This document shows, in pieces, positions 3,725-44,315 of a DNA stretch of 57,034 bases. Positions within the stretch are counted from its first letter, which is position 1. Each line of letters begins with the position of its first letter. This DNA is from a virus. Taxonomy: Duplodnaviria; Caudoviricetes. The position numbers and the translations under genes were made by a program. The stretch covers positions 1 through 57,034 of IMG/VR virus record IMGVR_UViG_3300036886_000048, one strand, 5' to 3'. Below the pieces are notes generated by a model. That model was not told the origin of the DNA, did no database searches, and worked only from the letters and a program-made list of their open reading frames with translations.

Positions 3725-3865
3725 ATGAAAGTATTCCACATCAAAATGTTGCTTGGAACCGGAGAATTAAAGCATGTTATCCGGGCGGCATACAACAAGG
3801 TCGAGGCAAGCCGTGCTGCATGTCTCGAATTCGATGGAGAACTGATTTACGTTATGGAGGATTGA
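3725..3865 (+). CDS. 46-aa hypothetical protein (not in ORF track)
   Basis: Identical GGAGGTTATCATGAAA start; MKVFHIKMLLG... Confidence 0.6.
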   Translation: MKVFHIKMLLGTGELKHVIRAAYNKVEASRAACLEFDGELIYVMED

Positions 3866-27961: not shown

Positions 27962-30900
27962 ATGACCACTACTGTAAATCTCCCCGATGGAACCCAACTG
28001 AATTTCCCTGACGGCATGGACAACCAATCCATGCAGTCTGCAATTTACACGTCGTTTCCTCAGTACGCCCCAAAACCAGCTCCATCCTTTTTTGAACGGA
28101 CACAGCAAAAAATTGCTGCGGCGGTTGCGCCTACATCTGATGTTTCGGTTATGGATCAGATCAAGAATATTTCTAGTGGACAGATCAAAAATGCGACTGC
28201 CAAATTCAATGCCCCAGATAGTACGATAGGCTTCGATCAAAATGGAATCAGCGATACCGGAACTCGTTCGTTGACTCAAGCCATTCTAAACCAATCTCCT
28301 GTGCGGAAAGTAGAAACAAATCCTGCAACTCTGGAACCAGATTATGTTGCTCCGGTTCAACAATCGTTGACACCTGTCGAAACCGCTTATACTAACGTCG
28401 GAAAGATTTTGGATAACGCAAAGACAGGCGCAGTAGATTTAGCTGTTCCTCAGAATACCGAACAGGTTCTTGCAAGAGATTCACAAAACATGCATCCGAC
28501 TGAAAAACCTGTGGTTACTGACATTGGAAACGCCATTGCAGAAACTGCTAAAAGTTCAGGTCGTTCTATCGAAGATTTATATGCAAGTCTTGGCGGAGGT
28601 ATGCATATCCTTAACCAAGATTATGCCGCAGGAATTGTTGCAGATAACATGAAAGCTGGAGACAGCAGTTATCGTGCTACAAGGTTTCCCGGCAAAGTAG
28701 TTGAAAACGCATTGCCTTTAGTTCCAGCGGTGGCCTCGTTCTTTATACCCGGAGTTGGAGAGGTTTTAGGTTCGGCAATGTTGGCTGCTCAGTTTGGATG
28801 GGGTTCTGGAAAAGACGCGATAGATCAAGGGAAAAGCGTGGGTAACGCTCAACTAAAAACTGCAGAATATGCAGTACTTGGAACTTCGTTAGGAGGATTG
28901 GTAACAGGTGGAGCTACAAAAGCACTGAGTATAATTCCCGGAATCGGGAAAGCATTTGTTCCGGCAGCAGCAGATACTGTAGGACAGTATGCCTCAAGAA
29001 TGGCGCAAGGTGCTGCTGGAATGGCGGCATTTGTTCCTGTTGGAACAGCGATCAATCAAGGCACAGATGTTCTTACAGGACAGTCTGGCAAACCAGAAGA
29101 TTACCAATATATGCCTACCGTCGATCAACTCATGGCGGGCGCATTACTTCCTGTGCCTCATGCTACACGCGATTTTGTGCAACGCAATACGATGCCCGAA
29201 AAATATATCGGATTGCCCAACGGTGACACAGCAATGTCTCATAGTTACGGAGCACTTTTTTCGTCTGAAGATGCGGCAAATTCTTTCATAGAGTCAAACG
29301 GTTTAACTCGTGGATGGGAACCGCAAGCACTTACCGTTTCAGGCAACAAATTGGGTTTCGTAGTAAAAGCAAAGCCAGCATTGGAAGTGGACTTAACTCC
29401 TAAGCGCACTGCCTCTGATGGTTCAACACCACTTGATTTTTCTCAGCCTGAACCATCAACACAACCACCTATCCCGGAACTAACTGACGCAGTTGGCGGA
29501 ACTCCTGTTGGAAATCAAGAAGTTAATTCTCAGATGGCAAACGCATTCCGTTCTGCAACAGAGGATGCCGCATACAAACAAGTCGAACAGCAGAAACAGG
29601 CTTCAATCGAAAAGGCATATAACTTAAATTTTGCTGAGAACCAATTTCAAAAATATCAAGGAGAACAAAATGTCCCAAGAAACGAGACTGTACATCCCGA
29701 AATACCTACGCAAAGCACTCAAGGAGAAACTGGTGTCACCGGAGGAAGCACTGAAAATGGCATTCTACGATCAGATAATGGCGGGGGCGAGTCAGGGTCT
29801 AATCCAGTACGCCAAGATCAGCAAGGACTTAAAACAGTCCTCGACGCTGTTAAAACAGGAACAGATCAAGTTTCTAATGCGGGGCAACAAACTGAACTGA
29901 CAGGCCGTAGAAATCACATTGAGTCGGTTCCTCCAGAACTGGATCAACGCAGTGGTTTAGATCAACGCCATGACGAAATAATGCGTATGCAAGTTGCTCA
30001 CATGACTCCTGAAGAATTGCGCCATACTATTTTGCACGACGAACTTACCGATTTACCAAATCTTAGAAATTTCAACGAATCCCCTGTACAAGCGATAGTT
30101 GGCTTTGGTGACGTAAACGGATTGAAAGGGTTGAATGATACACATGGACACCCTGCTGGTGATGCATTGATAGCAGCTACTGGACATATTCTTAAAAAAG
30201 TAACCATATCTACAGGAGGTAGAGTAACTTTTTACCGCAGGGGAGGCGATGAATTTCTTGTATACGGCCCGGATGAAAAAGCTGTAAATGCCGCGATTGC
30301 ACTGGCCAGGAGAGAACTTAAAAAGGCATCTTTCGATTTTCAAACTATAGACGGACAAACGGGAACTCAAAAGGGTATCAGTATTGCCTTTGGTATAGGC
30401 AAGGATGTTGCATCAGCCGAAGTTAAAATGAAAGCTGACAAAGCTAGGCAAAAAGCCAACGGTGCAGCAGCAAGGGGAGAATTATCTTCAGGTTTAAGTT
30501 TACACAATCCTGTGCAAGACGCAACCAATAATGCAATTGACGCTTTGGCGCAACAGCACGGAGTTTCTACAACACCAGTTGCACCAATTGACGACCATAG
30601 AACACAGGTTCCAGCCGTAGCGAAGTTAGATAAAACTCTTCGCATCATTCAAAATTTGCCTGAACAACGTGTTAATCAAACAAACACATTACCGGAACCT
30701 GTCGAAATTCCAGCAAAAAACGAACAGGTTATTGAACAAAAACCTTCTACTCAAGTCCAAGGATTAAGGCCGATTATTGAGGACATGATCCGAAACAAAG
30801 TAGTTGCGTCAAGGCCGAACAAAGCAGGACAGAGATTAGACCTTGCTCCAGCTATTCAACGTGCCAAGGAAATCCTGTCAGGAACGCGCACAGCGACTCC

Positions 30901-33900
30901 GGCAGAAGTTTCGTGGTGGACACGTACTGCAAAACGTTTTGAAGGCGTGGATGCTCCTTCCGGGCAGGCAGCGAGGGCAATCATTGATTATCTCAAGTCA
31001 GGAAAAACAGAAATTCAGAAAAGTGTTCATGTTTACCCCGGAGAATCGACACCCGAAATTCTGCATAACCAAGACACCAAAAATGCGATCATCAAACAGG
31101 TACAGTTAGACCATCCTACGTGGGGTGATGCAATTACCAAGTTACTCGAACGTGCCGACAACGGACAACGGGGCGGTTTGGTAATTGGCAGTGAAAAAGA
31201 AAATCTGCAACGTGCCGCCGAAATGTTGGCACAGAAAAATGGCACTACAGTACAACATGAGCTTGACAGATTGAGCAGTGCAACGCAACAAAGTATTACC
31301 GTGATCCGTGCAAAAACCGAAGATGAAGCGCATAAAATTGCTTCCGCAGTCGGTGGTCGTGTTGGTTCTGACTTGCAAGGATGGAAAGTTGAAACAAGTA
31401 CGCCTGTAACTGGGCCGTTGCAATACAGTATTGCCGCTTATGAAGGATTATCACCCGAAGAAATAACAACCAATCCTTCCAGTAGCAAACTTTTAGGATT
31501 GCTCAACCGAGTGGAAAAAGCAAAGCGAACTGCGATTTTGCGCGGTCTTGTAGATGATGCGGGAAATTTGCATGTGTGGGCGGCACACGATGCGATACAC
31601 CCAGAAGGTGCGAAAGCCTCAGGTATACCTTACGACTATACCAAACGAGTGGTAATTACAAAAACCGAAGGACTTCCGTATTTTAGTTTCGTTGACTTAG
31701 GTATAAACAAATCTGACTTAATTAGGCGTTATGGAAATAACGAAGTGTTGTTTGATGTTCCGGGCAAAGGTATTGCAACAGGTGCAGAATATGCGAAACA
31801 GGAAAATATCAAATCCGATAAACTACTGCATGACTTGAGGATTGAACCTCTGCAATATAGCAAAAATCAAATGGGTTTTTATAGCCAATTGAAAAACGCG
31901 ATTGATTCGGCTTCGGATAAAATATTTACAACAGGGCAACAAGTTAAATCGTGGTTGGATGCCAACGCTGGAAAACTCGGAGTCAAGAAAGATGAAATCT
32001 ATTGGTCAGGATTGACAGAATATCTGGAAATGAACCCCGGCAAAATCACCAAGCAAGCCGTTAAGTCGTTCTTGCAGATTTACGGTAATGTCGAAGTCAA
32101 AGAAGTAACTCTTGGAGGTTTTAAAAACGAGTGGGAAATTCTAAGTGAACACACTGGAAAAAGAATCGGCGGAACGTACCCGACTGAACTTGCAGCCAGA
32201 CGTGCCGCTAACGATTCTCCAGTTGGTGACAATCCAATAGTAAATCAGGTACGTGCAGACAACACAGGAGGTGCACCAAAGTATTACGTTTATCAACTTC
32301 CCGGTGGAGAGAATTACAAAGAGCTATTGCTGACGCTTCCAGAAAAAAACGATTCTACAGAAAAACTAAAAGATGCTCTTGATAAAGAATACAGAGTGCA
32401 TGGAAATTCTGAACATTATGACGAGCTTCTGGCGCAGCAAAAAAAGATAAGGGATGAAAATAAAAATTTTACATCGCAGCACTTCAACGAAAAAAACATC
32501 CTTGTTCACATCCGATTTAACGAGCGCACTGATGCAAACGGCAAGAAGGTTTTATTCATTGAAGAAATCCAATCTGACTGGGGACAGAAGGGAAAGAAAG
32601 AAGGATTTGTAACCGATGGTAAATTGCCAACTGACTGGACGGTACACCAGACTGGCCCGGATGGGTCTTGGTATGTACTTGATAAATCCAATACCCAAGT
32701 TGGTATCTACGGACGAACACGCGAGGAAGCCATTGCGACAGCACTTAATCCGAAGGGATATACAGGTGGCGTATCTAATGCCCCATTCGTGACAGATACA
32801 AAATCATGGACGACCCTTGCGTTAAAACGCATGATTATCTACGCTGCAGAAAACGGTTACGATAAAATTGCGTGGACAACAGGAGAACAACAGGTCGATA
32901 GATATAACCTTGCACACCAATTACAAAAGATAACCGCAATAAAACGAGGCGACACGTTTCAGATTCTTGGAATTGGAACTGACGGACAATCTCATAATTT
33001 TGGGGATCATACCGTTGCAGAGTTACCAAATGTCGTAGGAAAAGAACTAGCCGAAAAAATAGCAAATCAAGAAATGCCGAATGAAGTGTACGCAGGAAAT
33101 GATTTGAAGATTGGCGGCGAAGGAATGAAAGGTTATTATGACCAGATCGTTCCGCAGGTTGCAAACGAGATTCTGAAAAAGGTTGGTGGTGGGAAAGTTG
33201 AGCCTGTCGGAATAAATACTAGACATGAAGGTGCGGTATCGGGTGAAATGGTGATGAATCAATGGCATATTCCGATGGACCAACAAGATCGGTATTGGCA
33301 TGACATGACTTTAACGCAACGTTATACTGCAATTCATGCGTTTAGATCGGAAAAAGATGTTCAACCCGGATTTGTTATTACCCCTGAATTACGGACAAAA
33401 ATTCAATCCGAAGGTCTGCCGTTATTCAGCAAACAAAACACACGCACGCCAGGTTTCTATAGTCCTGAACTCGGAACAGCGTTTGTCAATCATGACGAAG
33501 TATCCGTAAAAGATGCGAGTGCAATTATCCTCCACGAAATGACTCACTCCGCCGACACTAAGACGCATCCCACGGATACTGACGGAAGAATGACCATCAT
33601 TGGAAAACAAGTTGTAACGCGCATGAACACGCCCGGAGTAATGGGATTACCTGTTTACGCTCGTGTGTGGGACAGACTGGTAAACGCGGGAGAAACAAAC
33701 AATCCACGCGAAGCTTTGAATTATCTTGTGGAAGAAACTTTGAACGATGCCAAACGATTCGGTTATTCTCGACTGGACAAAGGATTCATGGGATGGCTTC
33801 AACGTCAAGGATTTGCTGTATCCAAACCTGTAAAGGAATGGGTTGCGAATATCCGGGCAGCAATGTACGAACACGGAATTTCTGTGAAGGTTGAAGATTT

Positions 33901-36900
33901 AACAGTGGACGACATGATTGCTGCTGCTACTCGCGGAATGAAACGTGTTGCAGAAGGAAAACAAGAAGTTGCCGGATTAGAAAATAAAGCAATCTTGAAT
34001 GTTGGTTTAGACATTCCCGGTGGAGGAAAACTCAATCCAGAAGATGTACGTTCAAGTGTTGAGAAACTCGGAGTAAAGGTTCTGAGTGAAAATCTTCATC
34101 AATCCGATACAGAAATGACTTCGGTTTTGAGATTGTCTCGCCCATTGACAAAAGACGAAGTGTATCAATTGGCAGTCGAACACAAGCAAGACGCGATTGC
34201 ACAACGACTTCCAAACGGAACAGGTTTCCTCGCTGGCCCCAAGGCCGCAGATTGGGGAGACTATAATCCTGAATATTTCAAAATGCCAAACGGAAAATCT
34301 GCATCCGAATCAAATACTATTCAAGGTTCGGAACGAGGATCAAAACCCGGAGAAATTTCTGTAACCGGAGTTCACTATGGCAAGAAACTTTTCTCAGAAT
34401 TAAGTGGAAAATTTTTCGGTACGGCTGGCGCAGGTGCTGAACGCGACTGGTTGAATAAATTGCCAAAAGACGATCCATTGCAAACTCGGCTTGCGTTTTA
34501 TGTGAACGAAGGAAACGGAACATTCCCTGAATTGCAGAACGGTGTGGGTCATGTTCCGCACGAAGTTCCATTAAACAATCTTTATGACGTTGGATCAAAA
34601 CTTATAAAGACTCCTGTGGGAGATTACGCCGCCTTTGAACATGAAGTTTTGAAACAAGGTTACAGCGGCTACTACATCAAGAATGCTCAAGGTGTTGGCA
34701 AACGCCAGCAAGGTGTTGCGGTTCTTCTTGGCGATGCTGCAAAATCGCTAACGGTTCCTTCGCAAATTCAATTTTCTAAAAAAGAAACATTTGAAAATCT
34801 TAAAACAACGGTTGATGATTTAGCTGACCGAGTTAAATCAAACAAATCTATGTCAACCGTTTCAAGCGGAATATCTGGCGCGTGGGACGGAATTCAACGA
34901 GCCTTCGCTCCGCAATATCGTTCGCCGGAAGCAAGAGAGGTTTCCAGAATTTTGATTGAAGGACTTGGCACAAAAGAAATGGAAGGAATCCGTTTCCGTG
35001 CCAAACTGAACAACGCGAGTAAAGTCAACAATGAAGAACTGACGCTTTCTCAAAAAGCCAGAGACATTGTTGAAAAAGGTTTAACGGTTGCCGCAGATAA
35101 AGTCTTTCTAAGAAACAGCAAGGAAGAAAACTACGCATTTATGCAGGCAATGGACACCGGAGATTCTGCTTATTTTTCTACACGTCCCGAACTAAAAAGT
35201 ATGGCATACGTGATGGGCAAAATGTTCTACGACAAAGCGCGAGAAGTTCAATCTCTTGGTACAGGCGCACTCGAAACTATCCGTGAAAATTATTTTCCCC
35301 ATATCTGGAACCGCGAACCTTCTGGTGATACACAACGTCAAATTATGACCGCACTTTCAAAACGTCCATTTGAAGGACAAAAAGATTTTGTCAAGGCGCG
35401 TATTTTTGATGATTTCAATGCCGGAATTAAAGCTGGACTCGAACCTGTTTCTGATAACCCTCTCGATTTAGTTCTACTCAAGATGGAGGAAATGGACAAA
35501 TATATTCTGGCGCATAAAACTCTTCGGACGATTGCAGAAAATTCAGACGCAGTTACATTGATTGGTGCTGGAGATAAAAAACCTGCCGGGTACGAGGATG
35601 TAAACGGACGATTCGGATTCATCACAATCGGAAATGAGAAACTCAGATACGTTGCGCGTGACGACGTAGCTCAGGTCATTAACAATTATCTTTCTCCAAA
35701 TCTGTATCACAATAAGTATGTCGGTAAATTATATACTGGCGGAATGTCAGCCGCAAACACTTTGAACCAGTTTCAACTTGGGGTTTTCTCAGCATTTCAC
35801 GCCGGGTTTACTTCGTTTGAAGCCGTTATTTCTCACGCCGCAGTAGGTATTAAGGCACTTTCTGGTGGAGATTTCAAAGCCGCTGCACATTATATTGGAA
35901 CTGCTCCGGCAGCATGGATCAATAATCCAAAGATGGGTGACAGAATTATAAAGGAAATGCTGACTAAAGGTTCACACCCCGAAATGGCTCAGATCATCGA
36001 AGGGCTTCAACTCGCCGGATTTAAGTGGCAAATGGATACTCGGTTAAGAACCGATTCCACAAAGAGAATGATTCAGGCTTGGGGCGAAGGGAGACAAATA
36101 GTTGCCGCCGCGCATTCGCTCAACGCAGTAGTCGAACAATCGGCTCGTCCGATTCTTGAGTGGCTTGTGCCTCGTCAAAAGTTCGGTGTATTCGGTGAAA
36201 TGTATAACAAATGGATTCAAGATAACCCGAATGCGTCACATGAAGAATTGAGGAATTCCGCCCAACAAATTTGGAACAGAGTTGATTCACGTCTAGGCCA
36301 AGTGGTATATACACGACTGTTCATGCACAACGTCACAAAGAATTTTGGACAACTTCTGCTTCGTGCGCCGGGATGGACAGGCGGAACGATTCTCGAAGTG
36401 GGTGGCGGCATGAAAGACCTTGCGCTTTACGCAAAGGATGTGGCAACAGGAAAAAATCCCGGAGAAATTAGTGACCGGGCAGCGTACACGTTGTCGATGT
36501 TGTTGGTAACTTCAATTTCAAACGCACTTCTGACAACGTTATTTACTGGTAGTGCGCCGAAAGATTGGAAAGACCTTGTTGCATTCCGCACAGGTAACGT
36601 AGACGAACACGGCAGACCAGAACGATTTATGCTACCCACATATATGAAAGACGTGTATGCGTATGCTCACGACCCCGTCAAAACATTGTTGCACAAAACT
36701 CACCCGTTGCTATCGGTAGTCTCTGACATTGCCCGAAACAGAGACTATTATGGAACCGAGATTCGTAGCGAGGACGACGGACTTTTAAGGCAGCTAGGAG
36801 AGGCAGCAGGGTACGTTGCTGGCTCGTTCGTTCCGTTCTGGATGAAAGGTGTTCAAAAAGAACACGCGAGGGGAGGTAGCCTTATGACTGAGGCTTTGCC

Positions 36901-37306
36901 TTTAGTTGGGGTTATGCCAGCACCATCGGACATAAATAAGTCGAGAGCCGAAATTCTAATGAGCGAATACAGTGCCGACAGATTGCCTCAAGGAACCAGA
37001 ACTCGCGCACAGGCAGAAAAGGCAGCAGCTTCGTCAGAAATTTATTCCGCTATCAGGAAGAACGACATTGCAAAAGCACAGAAACTATTTGCGGAAGATC
37101 AGGCAAAAGGAATCTTGACTGCTCAAGACTATCGAAAAATTGCCATGTCGTCTGGAAACAATTATTTCGTGAACACATTTAAGAAGTTGACTTACGAACA
37201 GGCAGTTCGAGTTATGGCAGTAGCAACTCCAACAGAACAAAAAGAACTTGCTTTTGTATTTGCCCGGAAAAGGGCAACCTTTATTCAGAAAGGCGGCAGG
37301 CCATGA
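27962..37306 (+). CDS. giant polyvalent internal virion protein (GGDEF, EEIQSDW domain, HExxH zincin, SAM-lyase-like, ART-like)
   Basis: LPDGTQLNFPDG N-terminus; DELTDLPN..DVNGLKGLNDTHGHPAGD..RRGGDEF; FIEEIQSDW; ILHEMTH; HYG...GYSGY. Confidence 0.85.
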   Translation: MTTTVNLPDGTQLNFPDGMDNQSMQSAIYTSFPQYAPKPAPSFFERTQQKIAAAVAPTSDVSVMDQIKNISSGQIKNATAKFNAPDSTIGFDQNGISDTGTRSLTQAILNQSPVRKVETNPATLEPDYVAPVQQSLTPVETAYTNVGKILDNAKTGAVDLAVPQNTEQVLARDSQNMHPTEKPVVTDIGNAIAETAKSSGRSIEDLYASLGGGMHILNQDYAAGIVADNMKAGDSSYRATRFPGKVVENALPLVPAVASFFIPGVGEVLGSAMLAAQFGWGSGKDAIDQGKSVGNAQLKTAEYAVLGTSLGGLVTGGATKALSIIPGIGKAFVPAAADTVGQYASRMAQGAAGMAAFVPVGTAINQGTDVLTGQSGKPEDYQYMPTVDQLMAGALLPVPHATRDFVQRNTMPEKYIGLPNGDTAMSHSYGALFSSEDAANSFIESNGLTRGWEPQALTVSGNKLGFVVKAKPALEVDLTPKRTASDGSTPLDFSQPEPSTQPPIPELTDAVGGTPVGNQEVNSQMANAFRSATEDAAYKQVEQQKQASIEKAYNLNFAENQFQKYQGEQNVPRNETVHPEIPTQSTQGETGVTGGSTENGILRSDNGGGESGSNPVRQDQQGLKTVLDAVKTGTDQVSNAGQQTELTGRRNHIESVPPELDQRSGLDQRHDEIMRMQVAHMTPEELRHTILHDELTDLPNLRNFNESPVQAIVGFGDVNGLKGLNDTHGHPAGDALIAATGHILKKVTISTGGRVTFYRRGGDEFLVYGPDEKAVNAAIALARRELKKASFDFQTIDGQTGTQKGISIAFGIGKDVASAEVKMKADKARQKANGAAARGELSSGLSLHNPVQDATNNAIDALAQQHGVSTTPVAPIDDHRTQVPAVAKLDKTLRIIQNLPEQRVNQTNTLPEPVEIPAKNEQVIEQKPSTQVQGLRPIIEDMIRNKVVASRPNKAGQRLDLAPAIQRAKEILSGTRTATPAEVSWWTRTAKRFEGVDAPSGQAARAIIDYLKSGKTEIQKSVHVYPGESTPEILHNQDTKNAIIKQVQLDHPTWGDAITKLLERADNGQRGGLVIGSEKENLQRAAEMLAQKNGTTVQHELDRLSSATQQSITVIRAKTEDEAHKIASAVGGRVGSDLQGWKVETSTPVTGPLQYSIAAYEGLSPEEITTNPSSSKLLGLLNRVEKAKRTAILRGLVDDAGNLHVWAAHDAIHPEGAKASGIPYDYTKRVVITKTEGLPYFSFVDLGINKSDLIRRYGNNEVLFDVPGKGIATGAEYAKQENIKSDKLLHDLRIEPLQYSKNQMGFYSQLKNAIDSASDKIFTTGQQVKSWLDANAGKLGVKKDEIYWSGLTEYLEMNPGKITKQAVKSFLQIYGNVEVKEVTLGGFKNEWEILSEHTGKRIGGTYPTELAARRAANDSPVGDNPIVNQVRADNTGGAPKYYVYQLPGGENYKELLLTLPEKNDSTEKLKDALDKEYRVHGNSEHYDELLAQQKKIRDENKNFTSQHFNEKNILVHIRFNERTDANGKKVLFIEEIQSDWGQKGKKEGFVTDGKLPTDWTVHQTGPDGSWYVLDKSNTQVGIYGRTREEAIATALNPKGYTGGVSNAPFVTDTKSWTTLALKRMIIYAAENGYDKIAWTTGEQQVDRYNLAHQLQKITAIKRGDTFQILGIGTDGQSHNFGDHTVAELPNVVGKELAEKIANQEMPNEVYAGNDLKIGGEGMKGYYDQIVPQVANEILKKVGGGKVEPVGINTRHEGAVSGEMVMNQWHIPMDQQDRYWHDMTLTQRYTAIHAFRSEKDVQPGFVITPELRTKIQSEGLPLFSKQNTRTPGFYSPELGTAFVNHDEVSVKDASAIILHEMTHSADTKTHPTDTDGRMTIIGKQVVTRMNTPGVMGLPVYARVWDRLVNAGETNNPREALNYLVEETLNDAKRFGYSRLDKGFMGWLQRQGFAVSKPVKEWVANIRAAMYEHGISVKVEDLTVDDMIAAATRGMKRVAEGKQEVAGLENKAILNVGLDIPGGGKLNPEDVRSSVEKLGVKVLSENLHQSDTEMTSVLRLSRPLTKDEVYQLAVEHKQDAIAQRLPNGTGFLAGPKAADWGDYNPEYFKMPNGKSASESNTIQGSERGSKPGEISVTGVHYGKKLFSELSGKFFGTAGAGAERDWLNKLPKDDPLQTRLAFYVNEGNGTFPELQNGVGHVPHEVPLNNLYDVGSKLIKTPVGDYAAFEHEVLKQGYSGYYIKNAQGVGKRQQGVAVLLGDAAKSLTVPSQIQFSKKETFENLKTTVDDLADRVKSNKSMSTVSSGISGAWDGIQRAFAPQYRSPEAREVSRILIEGLGTKEMEGIRFRAKLNNASKVNNEELTLSQKARDIVEKGLTVAADKVFLRNSKEENYAFMQAMDTGDSAYFSTRPELKSMAYVMGKMFYDKAREVQSLGTGALETIRENYFPHIWNREPSGDTQRQIMTALSKRPFEGQKDFVKARIFDDFNAGIKAGLEPVSDNPLDLVLLKMEEMDKYILAHKTLRTIAENSDAVTLIGAGDKKPAGYEDVNGRFGFITIGNEKLRYVARDDVAQVINNYLSPNLYHNKYVGKLYTGGMSAANTLNQFQLGVFSAFHAGFTSFEAVISHAAVGIKALSGGDFKAAAHYIGTAPAAWINNPKMGDRIIKEMLTKGSHPEMAQIIEGLQLAGFKWQMDTRLRTDSTKRMIQAWGEGRQIVAAAHSLNAVVEQSARPILEWLVPRQKFGVFGEMYNKWIQDNPNASHEELRNSAQQIWNRVDSRLGQVVYTRLFMHNVTKNFGQLLLRAPGWTGGTILEVGGGMKDLALYAKDVATGKNPGEISDRAAYTLSMLLVTSISNALLTTLFTGSAPKDWKDLVAFRTGNVDEHGRPERFMLPTYMKDVYAYAHDPVKTLLHKTHPLLSVVSDIARNRDYYGTEIRSEDDGLLRQLGEAAGYVAGSFVPFWMKGVQKEHARGGSLMTEALPLVGVMPAPSDINKSRAEILMSEYSADRLPQGTRTRAQAEKAAASSEIYSAIRKNDIAKAQKLFAEDQAKGILTAQDYRKIAMSSGNNYFVNTFKKLTYEQAVRVMAVATPTEQKELAFVFARKRATFIQKGGRP

Positions 37307-40610: not shown

Positions 40611-41320
40611 TATTTATTCCTTTCTTTCCATTCTTCGGCAGCATTGATGGCAGCAGTATTTGCATGGATTCTTGCCAGCAAAATTTTAAACAACTCCCAA
40701 TCCTGTTTGTATTTCCATTCGTCGTGAACGATCAACTGGTATTTTCCAGTTTTTTTAAGCCAGAGCGTTGCACGTTTTGCATCCCGTAATCGGCTATATT
40801 CTTCATTCTTGTGGCTGGCGTCATAGGGAACCATTGCTTTTTTCGCTTCCTGATACGCGACCAATTGGACACTGGCAGTCTTGCAAATAGCCGCAGTGTT
40901 TTTTACATCAACAAAATAAAGTTCAGGCATTTCCAGAAGAAAGTCCATAGTTCCTGCATATCTTAGTTCTGAATGAAAAACCTTTTGTTCACTCGAAACA
41001 ATCTTCGGTTTTTTTTCCTCGACAAACATTTTGAAAGCCTCGAAATAAGGCTCAGTTTCAACGAAGAACTCGTATTCGTCGAGGTCGTCTGGACAAGTTT
41101 CTGAAACAGATTGAAGTAACGGGTTCTCATTGTTCTTTTCTTTCGCGTAAATTTCTATTGCCCGGTGAATTGTAGTTCCTCTATCGGCAGCATGTTTTAA
41201 TACTTCTGGACGGATCATTGAAAAGTCATTGAGCGCGGAAATTACATTCGTGACGCTCGGAACTATTTGCCCGTCCAGATAGTAAGCGTGAACCTTTTCA
41301 TCGAAAACTAAGTCACTCAT
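40610..41320 (-). CDS. PD-(D/E)XK (Cas4-like) exonuclease
   Basis: PSVT, RGT.IH, YAGTMD, VDVK, QLVAY. Confidence 0.85.
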   Translation of the reverse strand: MSDLVFDEKVHAYYLDGQIVPSVTNVISALNDFSMIRPEVLKHAADRGTTIHRAIEIYAKEKNNENPLLQSVSETCPDDLDEYEFFVETEPYFEAFKMFVEEKKPKIVSSEQKVFHSELRYAGTMDFLLEMPELYFVDVKNTAAICKTASVQLVAYQEAKKAMVPYDASHKNEEYSRLRDAKRATLWLKKTGKYQLIVHDEWKYKQDWELFKILLARIHANTAAINAAEEWKERNK

Positions 41321-41964
41321 TTTTTGCCTTTCAGCGTAGTCTTGATTGCCACAAACTCTGCCTTGGTCATTTCTTTGTAGTCCTCACCAAGCAGTCGATC
41401 AATCCCTGCCTCAGTCAAAATATCCGAAACGCTAGTTTCTTTAAGGGCCTTGAATTTTGCTTTGATGAACGCAATTTCGCCTACTTCGGCGGGAGGGCTG
41501 TCTGTGGCGGAAACTGTCGGTTCAGGCTGAGTTTTAGGTGAAGCCTTAGGTTTTGTTTTTCCGTTTGGTGTCTGTTGAACACCGTCTGTATCGCCTGTCA
41601 TTTGATCTAGGGCGTCGTGTTCGACAATCTCAAGCGCAGTTGTCCAAAGATACCTACGCAAATACGATTCCACCGCACCCAAATTTTGAACAGGGTGGCA
41701 ACCTTTTAAAGCCGCTTCGGACATGGGCGAAGTAACTATCACTTCGCTATTATCGTCGGTATCCGTGATCGTAAGTGTGGCTAATTCGCCAGTATAACGA
41801 ACTAATCCACAAAGTCCGAGTTTATGAAAAATTAGTTGTATTGCCGGAAGAAAATCTTCAAGTTCGAAGTAACTATTGCCGGAATACTCGTTTTTTCCGG
41901 TCTTTTTAAGCGAAGTTGCTTGAAGGTCTACTCTGGCCTGCATCAGTTTTTTAAGTACGCTCAT
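41317..41964 (-). CDS. ERF-family single-strand annealing protein
   Basis: KK.G.N....Y.EL.D, Q.LGAVESYLRRY; GGAG RBS before ATG 41964. Confidence 0.85.
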   Translation of the reverse strand: MSVLKKLMQARVDLQATSLKKTGKNEYSGNSYFELEDFLPAIQLIFHKLGLCGLVRYTGELATLTITDTDDNSEVIVTSPMSEAALKGCHPVQNLGAVESYLRRYLWTTALEIVEHDALDQMTGDTDGVQQTPNGKTKPKASPKTQPEPTVSATDSPPAEVGEIAFIKAKFKALKETSVSDILTEAGIDRLLGEDYKEMTKAEFVAIKTTLKGKK

Positions 41965-42067
41965 TTTGCGGTTCTCCGTGGAAAAATTGAACGGGTTACG
42001 GTTCCCGCTTTGCCCGGTAATGCCTCGCCCACATTCGGGTGGTATCTCTGGCAACGATTTGAGGCAC

Positions 42068-42096
42068 ATTAAACCACAGTTTGATTCAAATGTCAA
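42068..42096 (-). promoter_or_regulatory. leftward sigma70 promoter
   Basis: Minus strand TTGACA-17-TTTAAT, extended -10. Confidence 0.75.
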
Positions 42097-42129
42097 GCGA
42101 TTTAACTTGGCGAGGGCGGTTAATAAACC

Positions 42130-42158
42130 TTGACTTTTAACCGAAGTTATGGTAAGAT
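42130..42158 (+). promoter_or_regulatory. rightward sigma70 promoter of the ncRNA cluster
   Basis: TTGACT-17-TAAGAT, extended -10. Confidence 0.75.
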
Positions 42159-42166
42159 GTATGCAA

Positions 42167-42234
42167 GGTTGTGAAATTGATTAAATGTTGCCCGACAAAA
42201 CTTAATTGGTATTCGGAACAACAATTTTGCAACC
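42167..42234 (+). ncRNA. structured RNA domain 1 (unknown)
   Basis: 13-bp closing stem GGTTGTGAAATTG/CAATTTTGCAACC with G-U pairs. Confidence 0.55.
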
Positions 42235-42235
42235 G

Positions 42236-42344
42236 TTGCCGCATGATCCCATGAGTCGATAGTAGGTGAATGGGAATGGTTCGTTACCGATAAAAGTAAT
42301 CCTCCGAATAACGTGAACGGAGGCGTCTATCGACAAAGCGGCAA
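42236..42344 (+). ncRNA. structured RNA domain 2, possible pseudoknot
   Basis: TTGCCGC/GCGGCAA, GTCGATAG/CTATCGAC, CCTCCG/CGGAGG; crossing TCCCAT/ATGGGA. Confidence 0.6.
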
Positions 42345-42349
42345 GATTT

Positions 42350-42425
42350 CGAGGGGTAGCTCAGTCTGGTAGAGCTGGAGCCTCATAAGCTCAATGTCGC
42401 AAGTTCGAATCTTGCCCCCGCAACC
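42350..42425 (+). tRNA. tRNA-Met(CAT) with initiator-like acceptor end
   Basis: D stem GCTC/GAGC, CT-CAT-AA loop, GCAAG-TTCGAAT-CTTGC T arm, C1:A72. Confidence 0.9.
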
Positions 42426-42530
42426 GAACTTAGACGTTACCGAAAACCGTAGATTACCGGGCAAGCCGCATTGCTACGTCAGTAGGGTAAATCGAAGTTG
42501 ACTTACGCCGGATGGAAAGAATCTGGCACG

Positions 42531-42592
42531 AATTGCAACAGAGAAGGAGGTGATCCTAGTCTGAACAGACCCGAAGAGAGTCGATTGCAGTT
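42531..42592 (+). ncRNA. structured RNA with extended 16S-complementary element
   Basis: AATTGCAA/TTGCAGTT stem enclosing AAGGAGGTGATCC. Confidence 0.55.
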
Positions 42593-42594
42593 TT

Positions 42595-42631
42595 AGACCA
42601 ACATAATTCCGGTTAGTTGGTCTTTTTTTTT
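42595..42631 (+). terminator. intrinsic terminator
   Basis: AGACCAAC/GTTGGTCT followed by a long T run. Confidence 0.9.
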
Positions 42632-42648
42632 GCTCAAAAATATTTATG

Positions 42649-42852
42649 TTGACAGTTTTTTAAATTTGTGTTAAACTACGAGCGTGTTCAAACGGAGTAT
42701 AACCCTCTTTTAATAACTATATCACTAAAGGTTTTACGTTATATACGTTGTTAGAAAGAGTAATTATATCCACAAAATACTAGATATTAATATTAATACT
42801 ATATACGCGAGAGAATAAACCGTTTGCTTTTTCTTGCGGTTTGTGCTAGTAT
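42649..42852 (+). other. AT-rich putative replication origin with promoters
   Basis: TTGACA-17-TAAACT; long imperfect inverted repeat; ATATCCACA; directly upstream of helicase/primase. Confidence 0.45.
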
Positions 42853-42860
42853 TCGTGCCT

Positions 42861-44315
42861 ATGGAACTTCGAACTTATCAATCAACCTGTATCGAAAATT
42901 GCCGAAAAGCACTCGCTGAGGCATTTTCTGTAATCTTGTTGTATTCACCCACTGGTTCTGGAAAAACGGTGGTTGCATCGAACATCATGGAACGAGCCGC
43001 GACCAAAGGAAAACGGGTTATTTTTGTGGTGAATAGGGTTCACTTGGTCAAGCAGGCCAGCAAACATTTAAAAAACATCGGACTCACTCACGGTATTGTT
43101 CAATCCGACAACACATGGGGAACTGACAGAAACGTTTTGGTGTGTTCTGTACAAACACTTACCCGTCGCGGTTATCCTGACGCAGACTTGGTGATAATCG
43201 ACGAGGCTCACGGCATAACTTCGGACACATACCAGCGACTGATCGAGTATTATCGTTCAAATAACGTTCCGATCATTGGTCTGACAGCCACACCTTTCAC
43301 CAAAGGGTTAGGAAAAACCTTCCAGAAACTAGTTGTGGCAGCGACGATTCCAGAATTGATTAAATTGGGGCATCTGGTAGACTGTGAAATTTATGCACCA
43401 CCGGGGCCGGATTTGACGAACGTGCCGATAGTGAACGGTGATTACGAAGAACAATCCCTTGGAAAAGCGGTAGACCAGCACGACCTGATTGCAGACATTG
43501 TTGATACGTGGCTCGAACACAGTGGAGGACTTTCGACAATTCTGTTTGCCACAAACATTTTGCATAGCAAACACTGTTGCGACGAATTCAATTCTCGCGG
43601 TATTCCGGCAGAGCATGTGGATTGTTACACTTCTGACGACGAACGGGAAGCAGTCCAGCAACGCTTCGATACAGGTGTCACACTCGTTTTATGCAATGTG
43701 GATGTGTACTCTGAAGGTTGGGACTGTCCGAGGGCCACAGTGATGATTCTAGCACGTCCTACGCGCAAATTAACTAGATACATCCAACGTGCAGGACGGA
43801 TTTTAAGACCGTTTCCGGGAAAAACTATTGGATTGATTTTAGATCATTCAAAAACGTCATGGGAGTTTGGTTATCCTACTGACGAACTGCCTTTGGAACT
43901 CAATACTAAAACGCCTGCGAAGAAAAGCGAACCTTCCGACAAAAAGGAAAAAATCGCAAAACCTTGTCCCAAGTGTCACTTCCTGATTCCCCCCGGAGTA
44001 TACCCGTGTCCGAAATGCGGATTCGCAATGCAGGCGCAAAACGAAATCGAAGTAGGGGAAGGAAAACTAACAAAACTCCAGCGTAAATACCTGTTTACAC
44101 CGGATCAATTGCAGGAATTCTGGGGCGGTTGTTTGTTCTTGGCTGAGAAGCGTGGAAAACCCCGGACATGGGCGGCAAGGCTCTACAGCGACATTACTCA
44201 CAAATGGCCTAAAGGTTTGAACGAAATATCTTGCAATCCCAATCAGACTGTGTTAAACTTCGACGTACACGCTAGGATTAAGGCGAGTTTTTACAACAAA
44301 AGGAAATCGTCATGA
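42861..44315 (+). CDS. SF2 DEAH helicase with C-terminal Zn finger
   Basis: LRTYQ, SPTGSGKT, DEAH, GLTATP, QRAGRILR, CPKC-CPKC. Confidence 0.93.
   Translation: MELRTYQSTCIENCRKALAEAFSVILLYSPTGSGKTVVASNIMERAATKGKRVIFVVNRVHLVKQASKHLKNIGLTHGIVQSDNTWGTDRNVLVCSVQTLTRRGYPDADLVIIDEAHGITSDTYQRLIEYYRSNNVPIIGLTATPFTKGLGKTFQKLVVAATIPELIKLGHLVDCEIYAPPGPDLTNVPIVNGDYEEQSLGKAVDQHDLIADIVDTWLEHSGGLSTILFATNILHSKHCCDEFNSRGIPAEHVDCYTSDDEREAVQQRFDTGVTLVLCNVDVYSEGWDCPRATVMILARPTRKLTRYIQRAGRILRPFPGKTIGLILDHSKTSWEFGYPTDELPLELNTKTPAKKSEPSDKKEKIAKPCPKCHFLIPPGVYPCPKCGFAMQAQNEIEVGEGKLTKLQRKYLFTPDQLQEFWGGCLFLAEKRGKPRTWAARLYSDITHKWPKGLNEISCNPNQTVLNFDVHARIKASFYNKRKSS

Follow-up and report, generated by a model that had tools for sequence, protein, structure and literature searches.

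A candidate small RNA with a Shine-Dalgarno-like box, conserved upstream of the helicase operon in three uncultured phages

The window analysed here, a linear IMG/VR virus record of 57,034 bases that is estimated to be 72% complete, carries two divergent modules, as assigned from PHROG matches and open reading frames (ORFs). The leftward, recombination module holds an Erf-like annealing protein (41317-41964, minus strand) together with exonucleases, and the rightward module opens with a helicase (42861-44315) and also encodes a primase. Placed in the intergenic region of about 900 nucleotides (nt) between them is a gene-free unit on the plus strand, which starts at a sigma-70-like promoter (42130-42158), passes through a transfer RNA (tRNA) gene for methionine and stops at an intrinsic terminator (42595-42631). 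The segment directly before the terminator, 42531-42592, is a stem-closed element that recurs in two related phages. We suggest tentatively, and at a confidence that stops short of calling it probable, that the element and its terminator make up a trans-acting phage small RNA (sRNA), which would act by base pairing through a purine-rich box.

The unit is well framed. Its promoter reads TTGACT-17-TAAGAT with a TG before the -10 block, and both the -35 and -10 blocks align with those of the corresponding promoter in one relative, L082 (3563-3591; TTGACT-17-TATGAT, 10/12 matches). The terminator consists of an 8-base-pair (bp) outer stem followed by nine T residues; at -11.7 kcal/mol (z -4.33) it was equalled in stability by none of 200 shuffles. 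A simple terminator scan missed this hairpin, which we attribute to its 13-nt loop. The helicase operon has a promoter of its own 18 nt past the terminator (42649-42677; TTGACA-17-TAAACT, 10/12 matches, with TG), and its counterpart in L082 lies at 3784-3812. Six ORFs of 25-45 amino acids overlap the unit and none has a Pfam match at E<=0.1. The fold of the whole transcript has a z score of -2.40 (0/100 shuffles equally stable), a figure that includes the tRNA and the terminator. A previous reading of this DNA, made from its letters only and called here the sequence-only reading, had described a protein-free unit with a promoter, a strong terminator and no credible ORF. That description is borne out on each point and the arrangement is kept in both retrieved relatives, with the qualification that promoter-like sites are not in excess of shuffles in the region (4 against 3.2 +/- 1.5).

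The two relatives, L082 and L083/L084, are IMG/VR contigs of helicase relatives P0002 and P0006, with helicases 74% and 62% identical to that of the window. Our comparison covers these three homologous sequences; the other helicase relatives, P0003-P0005 and P0007-P0013 (50-67% identical, from Logan/ENA contigs), were left out of it. In both relatives a non-coding unit pointing rightward immediately precedes the helicase-operon promoter, and the order promoter, element, terminator, helicase-operon promoter is common to all three phages. The terminators of the relatives, at 3749-3765 of L082 (followed by T8) and at 3280-3306 of L083, were both flagged by the scan tool.

Within the element, the stem P1 (42531-38/42585-92) surrounds an invariant core with the consensus AAGGAG-(N)-GUGAU...GUCURAAYAG. 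The blocks common to the three phages are, in order, AATTGCA...CAG...AAGGAG-N9-GTCTNAANAG, the closing strand and the terminator; the second invariant box, GTCTGAACAG at 42559-42568, reads GUCURAAYAG in all three. A profile search with the core returned exactly one copy per record (E 3e-13 to 5e-15; next best E>=0.9). Homology and conservation are direct observations, as is the promoter-to-terminator frame. The element of the window is identical to that of L082 at 51 of 65 aligned bases (78.5%) and to that of L083 at 50 of 64 (78.1%). For the helicase gene the corresponding DNA identities are 71.7% and 61.6%, and therefore the element is at least as conserved as an essential gene.

The element folds somewhat better than expected by chance (z -2.32; 7/200 shuffles as good), and its fold is identical alone and within the full transcript. 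In the RNAalifold consensus 90.7% of 75 cells pair, compared with 77.6 +/- 3.4 in shuffles, none of 500 of which reached the observed value; in a control with slid partners 29-51% of cells pair. Two-sided pair changes are concentrated in the terminator helix, which holds seven of the eight. The eighth is in P1, which also shows two wobble changes; no two-sided change falls in the inner hairpins. What is conserved in the core is therefore its sequence, with a stem and a terminator as the frame, and the selected feature of the element is its sequence rather than an elaborate fold. Covariation among relatives, which the sequence-only reading had named as a check on its stems, was accordingly found in the terminator and at a single pair of P1, and was missing from the inner hairpins.

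The placement of the unit, co-oriented with the helicase operon and directly upstream of it in all three phages, and the small conserved hairpin GUCU-RAAY-AGRC would also suit a cis-acting leader, with element and terminator serving as an attenuator or as a nut/put-like antitermination signal for the helicase/primase operon. We regard this as rather unlikely. Strong terminators close the units, with 8-9 T in a row in the window and L082, and in the same two phages a separate near-consensus promoter follows the terminator within about 20 nt. Moreover, we saw no alternative pairing common to the three phages, be it an anti-terminator or the switch of a riboswitch or attenuator. No N- or Q-like gene was identified either, although none was searched for.

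The first part of the core is a Shine-Dalgarno (SD)-like box, AAGGAGGTGATCC at 42544-42556, whose 13 nt are complementary to the 3' tail of 16S ribosomal RNA (rRNA) and which contains the only AAGGAGG in the 57-kb window. Across the three phages this purine-rich box reads GAAAGGAG-(N)-GUGAU(C). With tail strings for Escherichia coli and Bacillus subtilis taken from PMC5732282, we looked on either strand of each complete record for the most stable duplex with the 16S tail (energies in kcal/mol). For the 15-nt B. subtilis tail the element ranked first in every record, at -22.5 in the window (next -17.8), -19.4 in L082 (next -17.2) and -22.3 in L083 (next -18.2). For the 13-nt E. coli tail it ranked first in the window (-21.6; next -16.7) and second in L082 (-15.4; best -16.1) and in L083 (-18.1; best -18.2). 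Shuffles of the element matched the observed duplex energy 0-6 times per 1000.

Real genes of the window phage have GGAG 6-9 nt before ATG. Behind the box, by comparison, a start codon at working distance is missing, as is any frame common to the three phages. We considered mini-ORFs that begin GUG-AUC..., and rejected them: by our reading they have 2-5 codons, lie 0-1 nt from the box and are not conserved in frame. A six-nucleotide SD (AGGAGG) outperforms shorter and longer ones in E. coli, according to PMC2176067, and a 13-nt match therefore suits binding and not initiation. Alternatively, the box may be a relic, left over from ribosome binding at a small gene now decayed, in a unit with no present function. 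An SD followed after about 7 nt by TCT-AAA-CAG does resemble real gene starts, and the pattern matched a true gene start in a Blastocatellia metagenome-assembled genome. Nevertheless, we find this very improbable, given that three phages with helicase genes 28-38% different at the DNA level have all retained promoter, terminator and boxes, that the element's identity is above that of coding DNA, and that no relative has an intact frame there.

A protein might be the target instead. The purine box and GGA motifs could titrate CsrA/RsmA, Hfq, S1 or a RegB-like nuclease, and the AAGGAG of the element, with its GGA partly in a small hairpin, as well as a GGAAAGA in the loop of the window hairpin 42507-42527, would fit such a decoy. 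So would the general resemblance to Hfq-type sRNAs, which have a terminator with a U tail and a preceding AU-rich stretch. Known CsrA sponges, however, carry many GGA sites, displayed in hairpin loops in the CsrB/RsmZ type, and here each element has a single conserved one; the GUGAU extension and the GUCURAAYAG box are likewise foreign to protein motifs of this kind. We therefore consider a protein decoy quite improbable.

Several observations weigh against an sRNA that pairs through its box. The 16S-tail ranks come from three homologous sequences and are not independent events, and the tails used were those of E. coli and B. subtilis, which may not be the host's. A 1-nt bulge breaks the tail pairing in L082 and L083. 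Folding predictions place the GGA of the box partly in a hairpin of 3-4 bp, opposite UCC, and give AAGGAG a mean unpaired probability of 0.34, 0.40 and 0.66 in the respective phages. Since the phage's own genes use SD sequences, a general mask of the anti-SD would hit them too. On the structural side, the inner hairpins are without compensatory changes, as described, and in L082 the element plus terminator folds at shuffle level (z -0.44; 62/200 as stable). Finally, the L083 promoter (TTGCTT-17-TAAAAT) was read by eye and was not flagged by the scan.

We also asked whether the RNA might pair with the start of the helicase message, and rejected this: duplex energies fell within those of shuffles (fractions 0.17, 0.51 and 0.04). 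In the window 42525-33 complements 42851-59 at the helicase start over 9 nt, and L083 has 8 nt of such complementarity, but L082 has no match of at least 7 nt.

Next to the unit, and ahead of the replication genes, runs a conserved leader, about 180 nt long, that is AT-rich and contains short repeats. This raises the alternative that a short transcript alongside an AT-rich stretch (42680-42830) serves to activate or prime an origin and that the RNA's sequence matters little. This reading leaves the invariant transcript boxes and the 16S-tail fit unexplained. In addition, the unit of L083 is separated from the helicase by small ORFs, and no iterons are common to all three phages. We consider an origin role distinctly unlikely. 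The leader itself (42678-42860; L082 3813-4000) is conserved block by block and holds short TATATACG-like repeats and palindromes, and the helicase start that follows is without a GGAG within 20 nt in both the window and L082. It may be a region of operators, an origin or an SD-independent start region.

The tRNA in the unit is real. Where the sequence-only reading had noted a tRNA, ARAGORN places a tRNA-Met (CAT) at 42350-42425, with an Rfam score of 55.6 bits, and it is the only tRNA in the whole window. It is homologous to the tRNA-Met of L083 (3120-3194), with four compensatory pairs between the two. Hallmarks of bacterial initiator tRNAs are a mismatch at 1:72 and an anticodon stem with three G-C pairs at its base. 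Position 1:72 is unpaired in both phage genes by our reading (C1.A72, an initiator-like acceptor end, in the window; A1.A72 in L083), and the window tRNA has a further mismatch, A3.G70. The anticodon stem of L083 has, again by our reading, four G-C pairs, and that of the window runs G.A, G-C, A-U, G-C, C-G. Together these features suggest phage tRNAs of initiator type, to which the L083 gene fits and the window gene fits in part. CCA is encoded in the L083 gene; the window gene encodes just CC, followed by G.

A permuted transfer-messenger RNA (tmRNA) was called by ARAGORN at 42110-42422, with the tag VARQNLIGIRNNNFATVAA (...NNNFATVAA), only at -ps85 and not at default settings. Charging of tmRNA with alanine needs a G.U pair at 3:70, and the pair here is A.G. 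The tRNA is moreover full length, at 55.6 bits, with an anticodon arm, and by our reading the tag frame stops early in L082. We rejected the call as spurious, a product of the T arm of the real tRNA.

L082 has no tRNA, either at the locus or elsewhere in its 41.7-kb record, and carries the unit all the same. Release by tRNA processing, as proposed in the sequence-only reading, is therefore not the conserved principle. In L082 the element follows a 5' hairpin alone, and for that reason the tRNA looks like a passenger. The hairpin, domain 1 (42167-42234), has a minimum free energy of -18.6 kcal/mol and is present in L082 and absent from L083; the segment 42160-42235 folds with z -2.65 (5/200 shuffles as good). 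Taken over the window and L082, the outer stem of 13 pairs has 25 of its 26 cells paired, with two two-sided and four one-sided changes, a covariation that has no statistical power with two sequences (113/500 shuffles do equally well). Compared with L082, the window is about 290 nt longer between this hairpin and the element, a difference made up of domain 2, the tRNA and domain 3.

Domain 2, the 5' flank of the tRNA (42236-42344), has nested perfect stems at 42236-42/42338-44 and 42255-62/42327-34 and a fold of z -2.46 (4/200 shuffles as good). Domain 3, the 3' flank (42426-42530), has 42507-42527 as its sole clean hairpin and a fold of z -1.83 (12/200 as stable); the segment 42433-42527 within it folds at chance (z -0.50; 53/200 as good), and its stems GACGT/ACGTC and GATTACC/GGTAAATC cross and cannot both nest. 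Neither 42236-42344 nor 42433-42527 has a counterpart in L082 or L083, and BLAST of 42130-42860 against both relative records matched only 36 nt near the helicase start. Tentative tRNA-like folds hidden in domains 2 and 3 appeared in ARAGORN only at -ps70, alongside seven other implausible calls, and were dismissed.

The sequence-only reading had taken the four flanking domains for separate functional RNAs (decoys, sponges or ribozymes) cut loose by tRNA processing. All of the stems it named are present in the sequence and the domains exist; they abut and fold independently, and two variants from peat contigs, described below, keep their pairing. On the other hand, the folds are only modestly above shuffles, at or near chance for domains 2 and 3. 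Of the domains themselves, the last is conserved in all three phages and the 5' hairpin in two, and domains 2 and 3 are confined to the window. The last domain and a terminator are present in all three phages, and the tRNA and its two neighbouring folds are better seen as optional extras. With a relative that lacks the tRNA, and with no Rfam match in support of a ribozyme or any other known RNA, a series of separate functional RNAs is highly improbable.

The two variants are 42524 T>C, which turns a G.U into a G-C pair in hairpin 42507-42527, and 42259 A>G, which turns an A-U into a G.U pair in 42255-62/42327-34; both have a depth below 5 and are possible errors. Near-identical DNA is confined to peat metagenomes (seven runs from five studies, with no RNA dataset listed among them), and contigs from four of those seven runs differ from the region by merely four single-base variants.

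Wider searches returned the same three members. In Rfam 15 the tRNA was the sole match, at gathering scores over the whole window and at E<=10 within 41900-42900; the relatives' loci gave the tRNA plus sub-threshold chance matches only. One of these, the Caulobacter sRNA CC2171 on the L083 element (L085 3001-3099, minus strand), scored 20 bits against a gathering threshold of 75 (E 0.71), has no match in the window, and was set aside. Blastn against INPHARED matched the tRNA part alone, in two records. No further copy of the element was found by nhmmer at 80 IMG/VR and 47 metagenome loci with helicase relatives (25-52% amino acid identity), in searches of 133 and later 146 loci totalling 936 kb. 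None of 60 more distant loci scanned carries a tRNA-Met, and one has a tRNA-Gln. A strict exact-pattern scan of IMG/VR matched only L082 and L083, and a looser pattern added four matches that we read as inside coding DNA. In GTDB genomes the exact pattern matched three times, all unrelated, one read as a true and one as a likely gene start. Patterns drawn from the two conserved leaders matched the record of L082 only.

Among cultured phages the nearest are siphophages that infect Alteromonas, Acidovorax, Pseudomonas, Burkholderia and E. coli (Seurat), whose DNA polymerases share 44-46% identity with that of the window; this hints weakly at a proteobacterial host. No cultured phage has a helicase more than 36% identical to the window's, and at such distances the element is not to be expected in these phages.

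Some further features of the locus deserve mention. By eye, a promoter pointing leftward can be read at about 42097-42069 (TTGACA-17-TTTAAT); it precedes a leader of about 95 nt, and promoter plus leader (41965-42100, minus strand; L082 2941-3075) are 75% identical between the window and L082. A terminator-like hairpin in this leader (42009-41990) keeps its pairing in L082, where CGGG/CCCG becomes CUGG/CCAG, and it could be a conserved attenuator or 5' structure. The genes behind the shared leader differ, Erf-like in the window and, by our reading, zinc-finger Rad52-like in L082 (2155-2940, minus strand), although the C-terminal 60 or so residues of the two annealing proteins (41317-41964 in the window) are almost identical. 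From these sequences it looks like a domain swap with the common tail retained. A perfect inverted repeat at 42010-42021 and 42453-42464 gives the RNA of the leftward leader and that of domain 3, which is confined to the window, the same 12-mer, AUUACCGGGCAA; by our estimate about 0.02 chance matches are expected in the region. The shared 12-mer could be a decoy for a leader-binding factor or a pair of operator sites. Elsewhere in the window, an ORF of 3114 amino acids (27962-37306) has weak and patchy PHROG matches, including an endolysin-like stretch, and is probably a giant virion or tail protein.

What we infer about transcription, processing, partner and effect can be put together as follows. 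A sigma-70 promoter would drive, early in infection, a short gene-free transcript between divergent early promoters, and the 3' end of this transcript would be a small RNA of about 100-120 nt, composed of the stem-closed module of about 62 nt (42531-42592) and the directly adjoining intrinsic terminator. In the window phage and L083 it would be the 3' trailer of an initiator-like tRNA-Met, freed by ordinary 3'-end processing of the tRNA; in L082 it would be contained in a primary transcript of about 180 nt, preceded only by the 5' hairpin. Through its first, purine box the RNA would then pair in trans, either with the anti-SD tail of the 30S subunit, masking it or competing for it with messenger RNAs (mRNAs), or with a CU-rich regulatory RNA, for which the element RNA would serve as a sponge.

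The more specific proposal, in which the RNA masks the anti-SD by pairing with the free 16S 3' tail and so re-programs early initiation, follows from complementarity, itself a plain observation; as a claim about function we consider it unlikely. If it were true, up to 13 contiguous base pairs would form with the tail in the window phage, SD-led host messages would be damped, and messages with conserved starts that lack an SD would be spared, among them the phage helicase in the window and L082. A precursor shared with a phage initiator-type tRNA would carry the RNA in two of the three phages. A full-text literature search, judged by titles, found no natural RNA that acts by occupying the 16S tail. 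The core of the element, which gives the best match in each genome to the 15-nt form of the ribosome's mRNA-docking tail and precedes no gene, thus yields a testable hypothesis of an anti-SD binder or a binder of an anti-SD-like regulator; should the hypothesis of a 16S or regulator partner be wrong, an ordinary new sRNA family of three members remains. An sRNA that can be produced as a tRNA trailer or without any tRNA would also make the tRNA a movable insert in a pre-existing RNA gene.

By mode of production, the nearest known system appears to be a spacer of the glyW-cysT-leuZ tRNA operon. This 3' external transcribed spacer (3'ETS-leuZ) of an E. coli tRNA operon sponges sRNAs (Lalaouna et al. 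2015, as relayed in PMC7213987). The two would be alike as non-coding tRNA 3' trailers that end at the operon terminator and pair in trans as a sponge, which is our proposal here; 3'ETS-leuZ is a host RNA, of a type that RNase E releases, with known sRNA partners, in contrast to the phage-borne RNA proposed here, and the two have no sequence similarity. The layout, directly downstream of a tRNA and ending at a terminator, is found in two of our three phages, whereas L082 has no upstream tRNA; the box is SD-like and the partner is only proposed.

Among phages, the nearest precedent would be RNAC and RNAD, which lie in the tRNA cluster of T4. They are described as "RNAs of yet unknown functions" and classed as late RNAs in PMC9697503. 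Like them, the RNA proposed here would be a stable, phage-encoded small RNA tied to tRNA genes, but there is no evident sequence relation and the promoter is of sigma-70 type, in an early divergent region. The Val-tRF of Haloferax competes with mRNA on the small subunit, not through SD/anti-SD pairing (PMC5711459); it too is a tRNA-connected small RNA, and the RNA described here could similarly lower initiation by occupying the small subunit, although our only lead is complementarity to the anti-SD tail. With tmRNA the unit shares a tRNA-like part joined to an mRNA-like part, and it differs in having a complete tRNA with an anticodon arm. Known phage sRNAs are few and come mostly from model phages, and the one predicted here would add to them a conserved and independently framed sRNA from uncultured peat phages.

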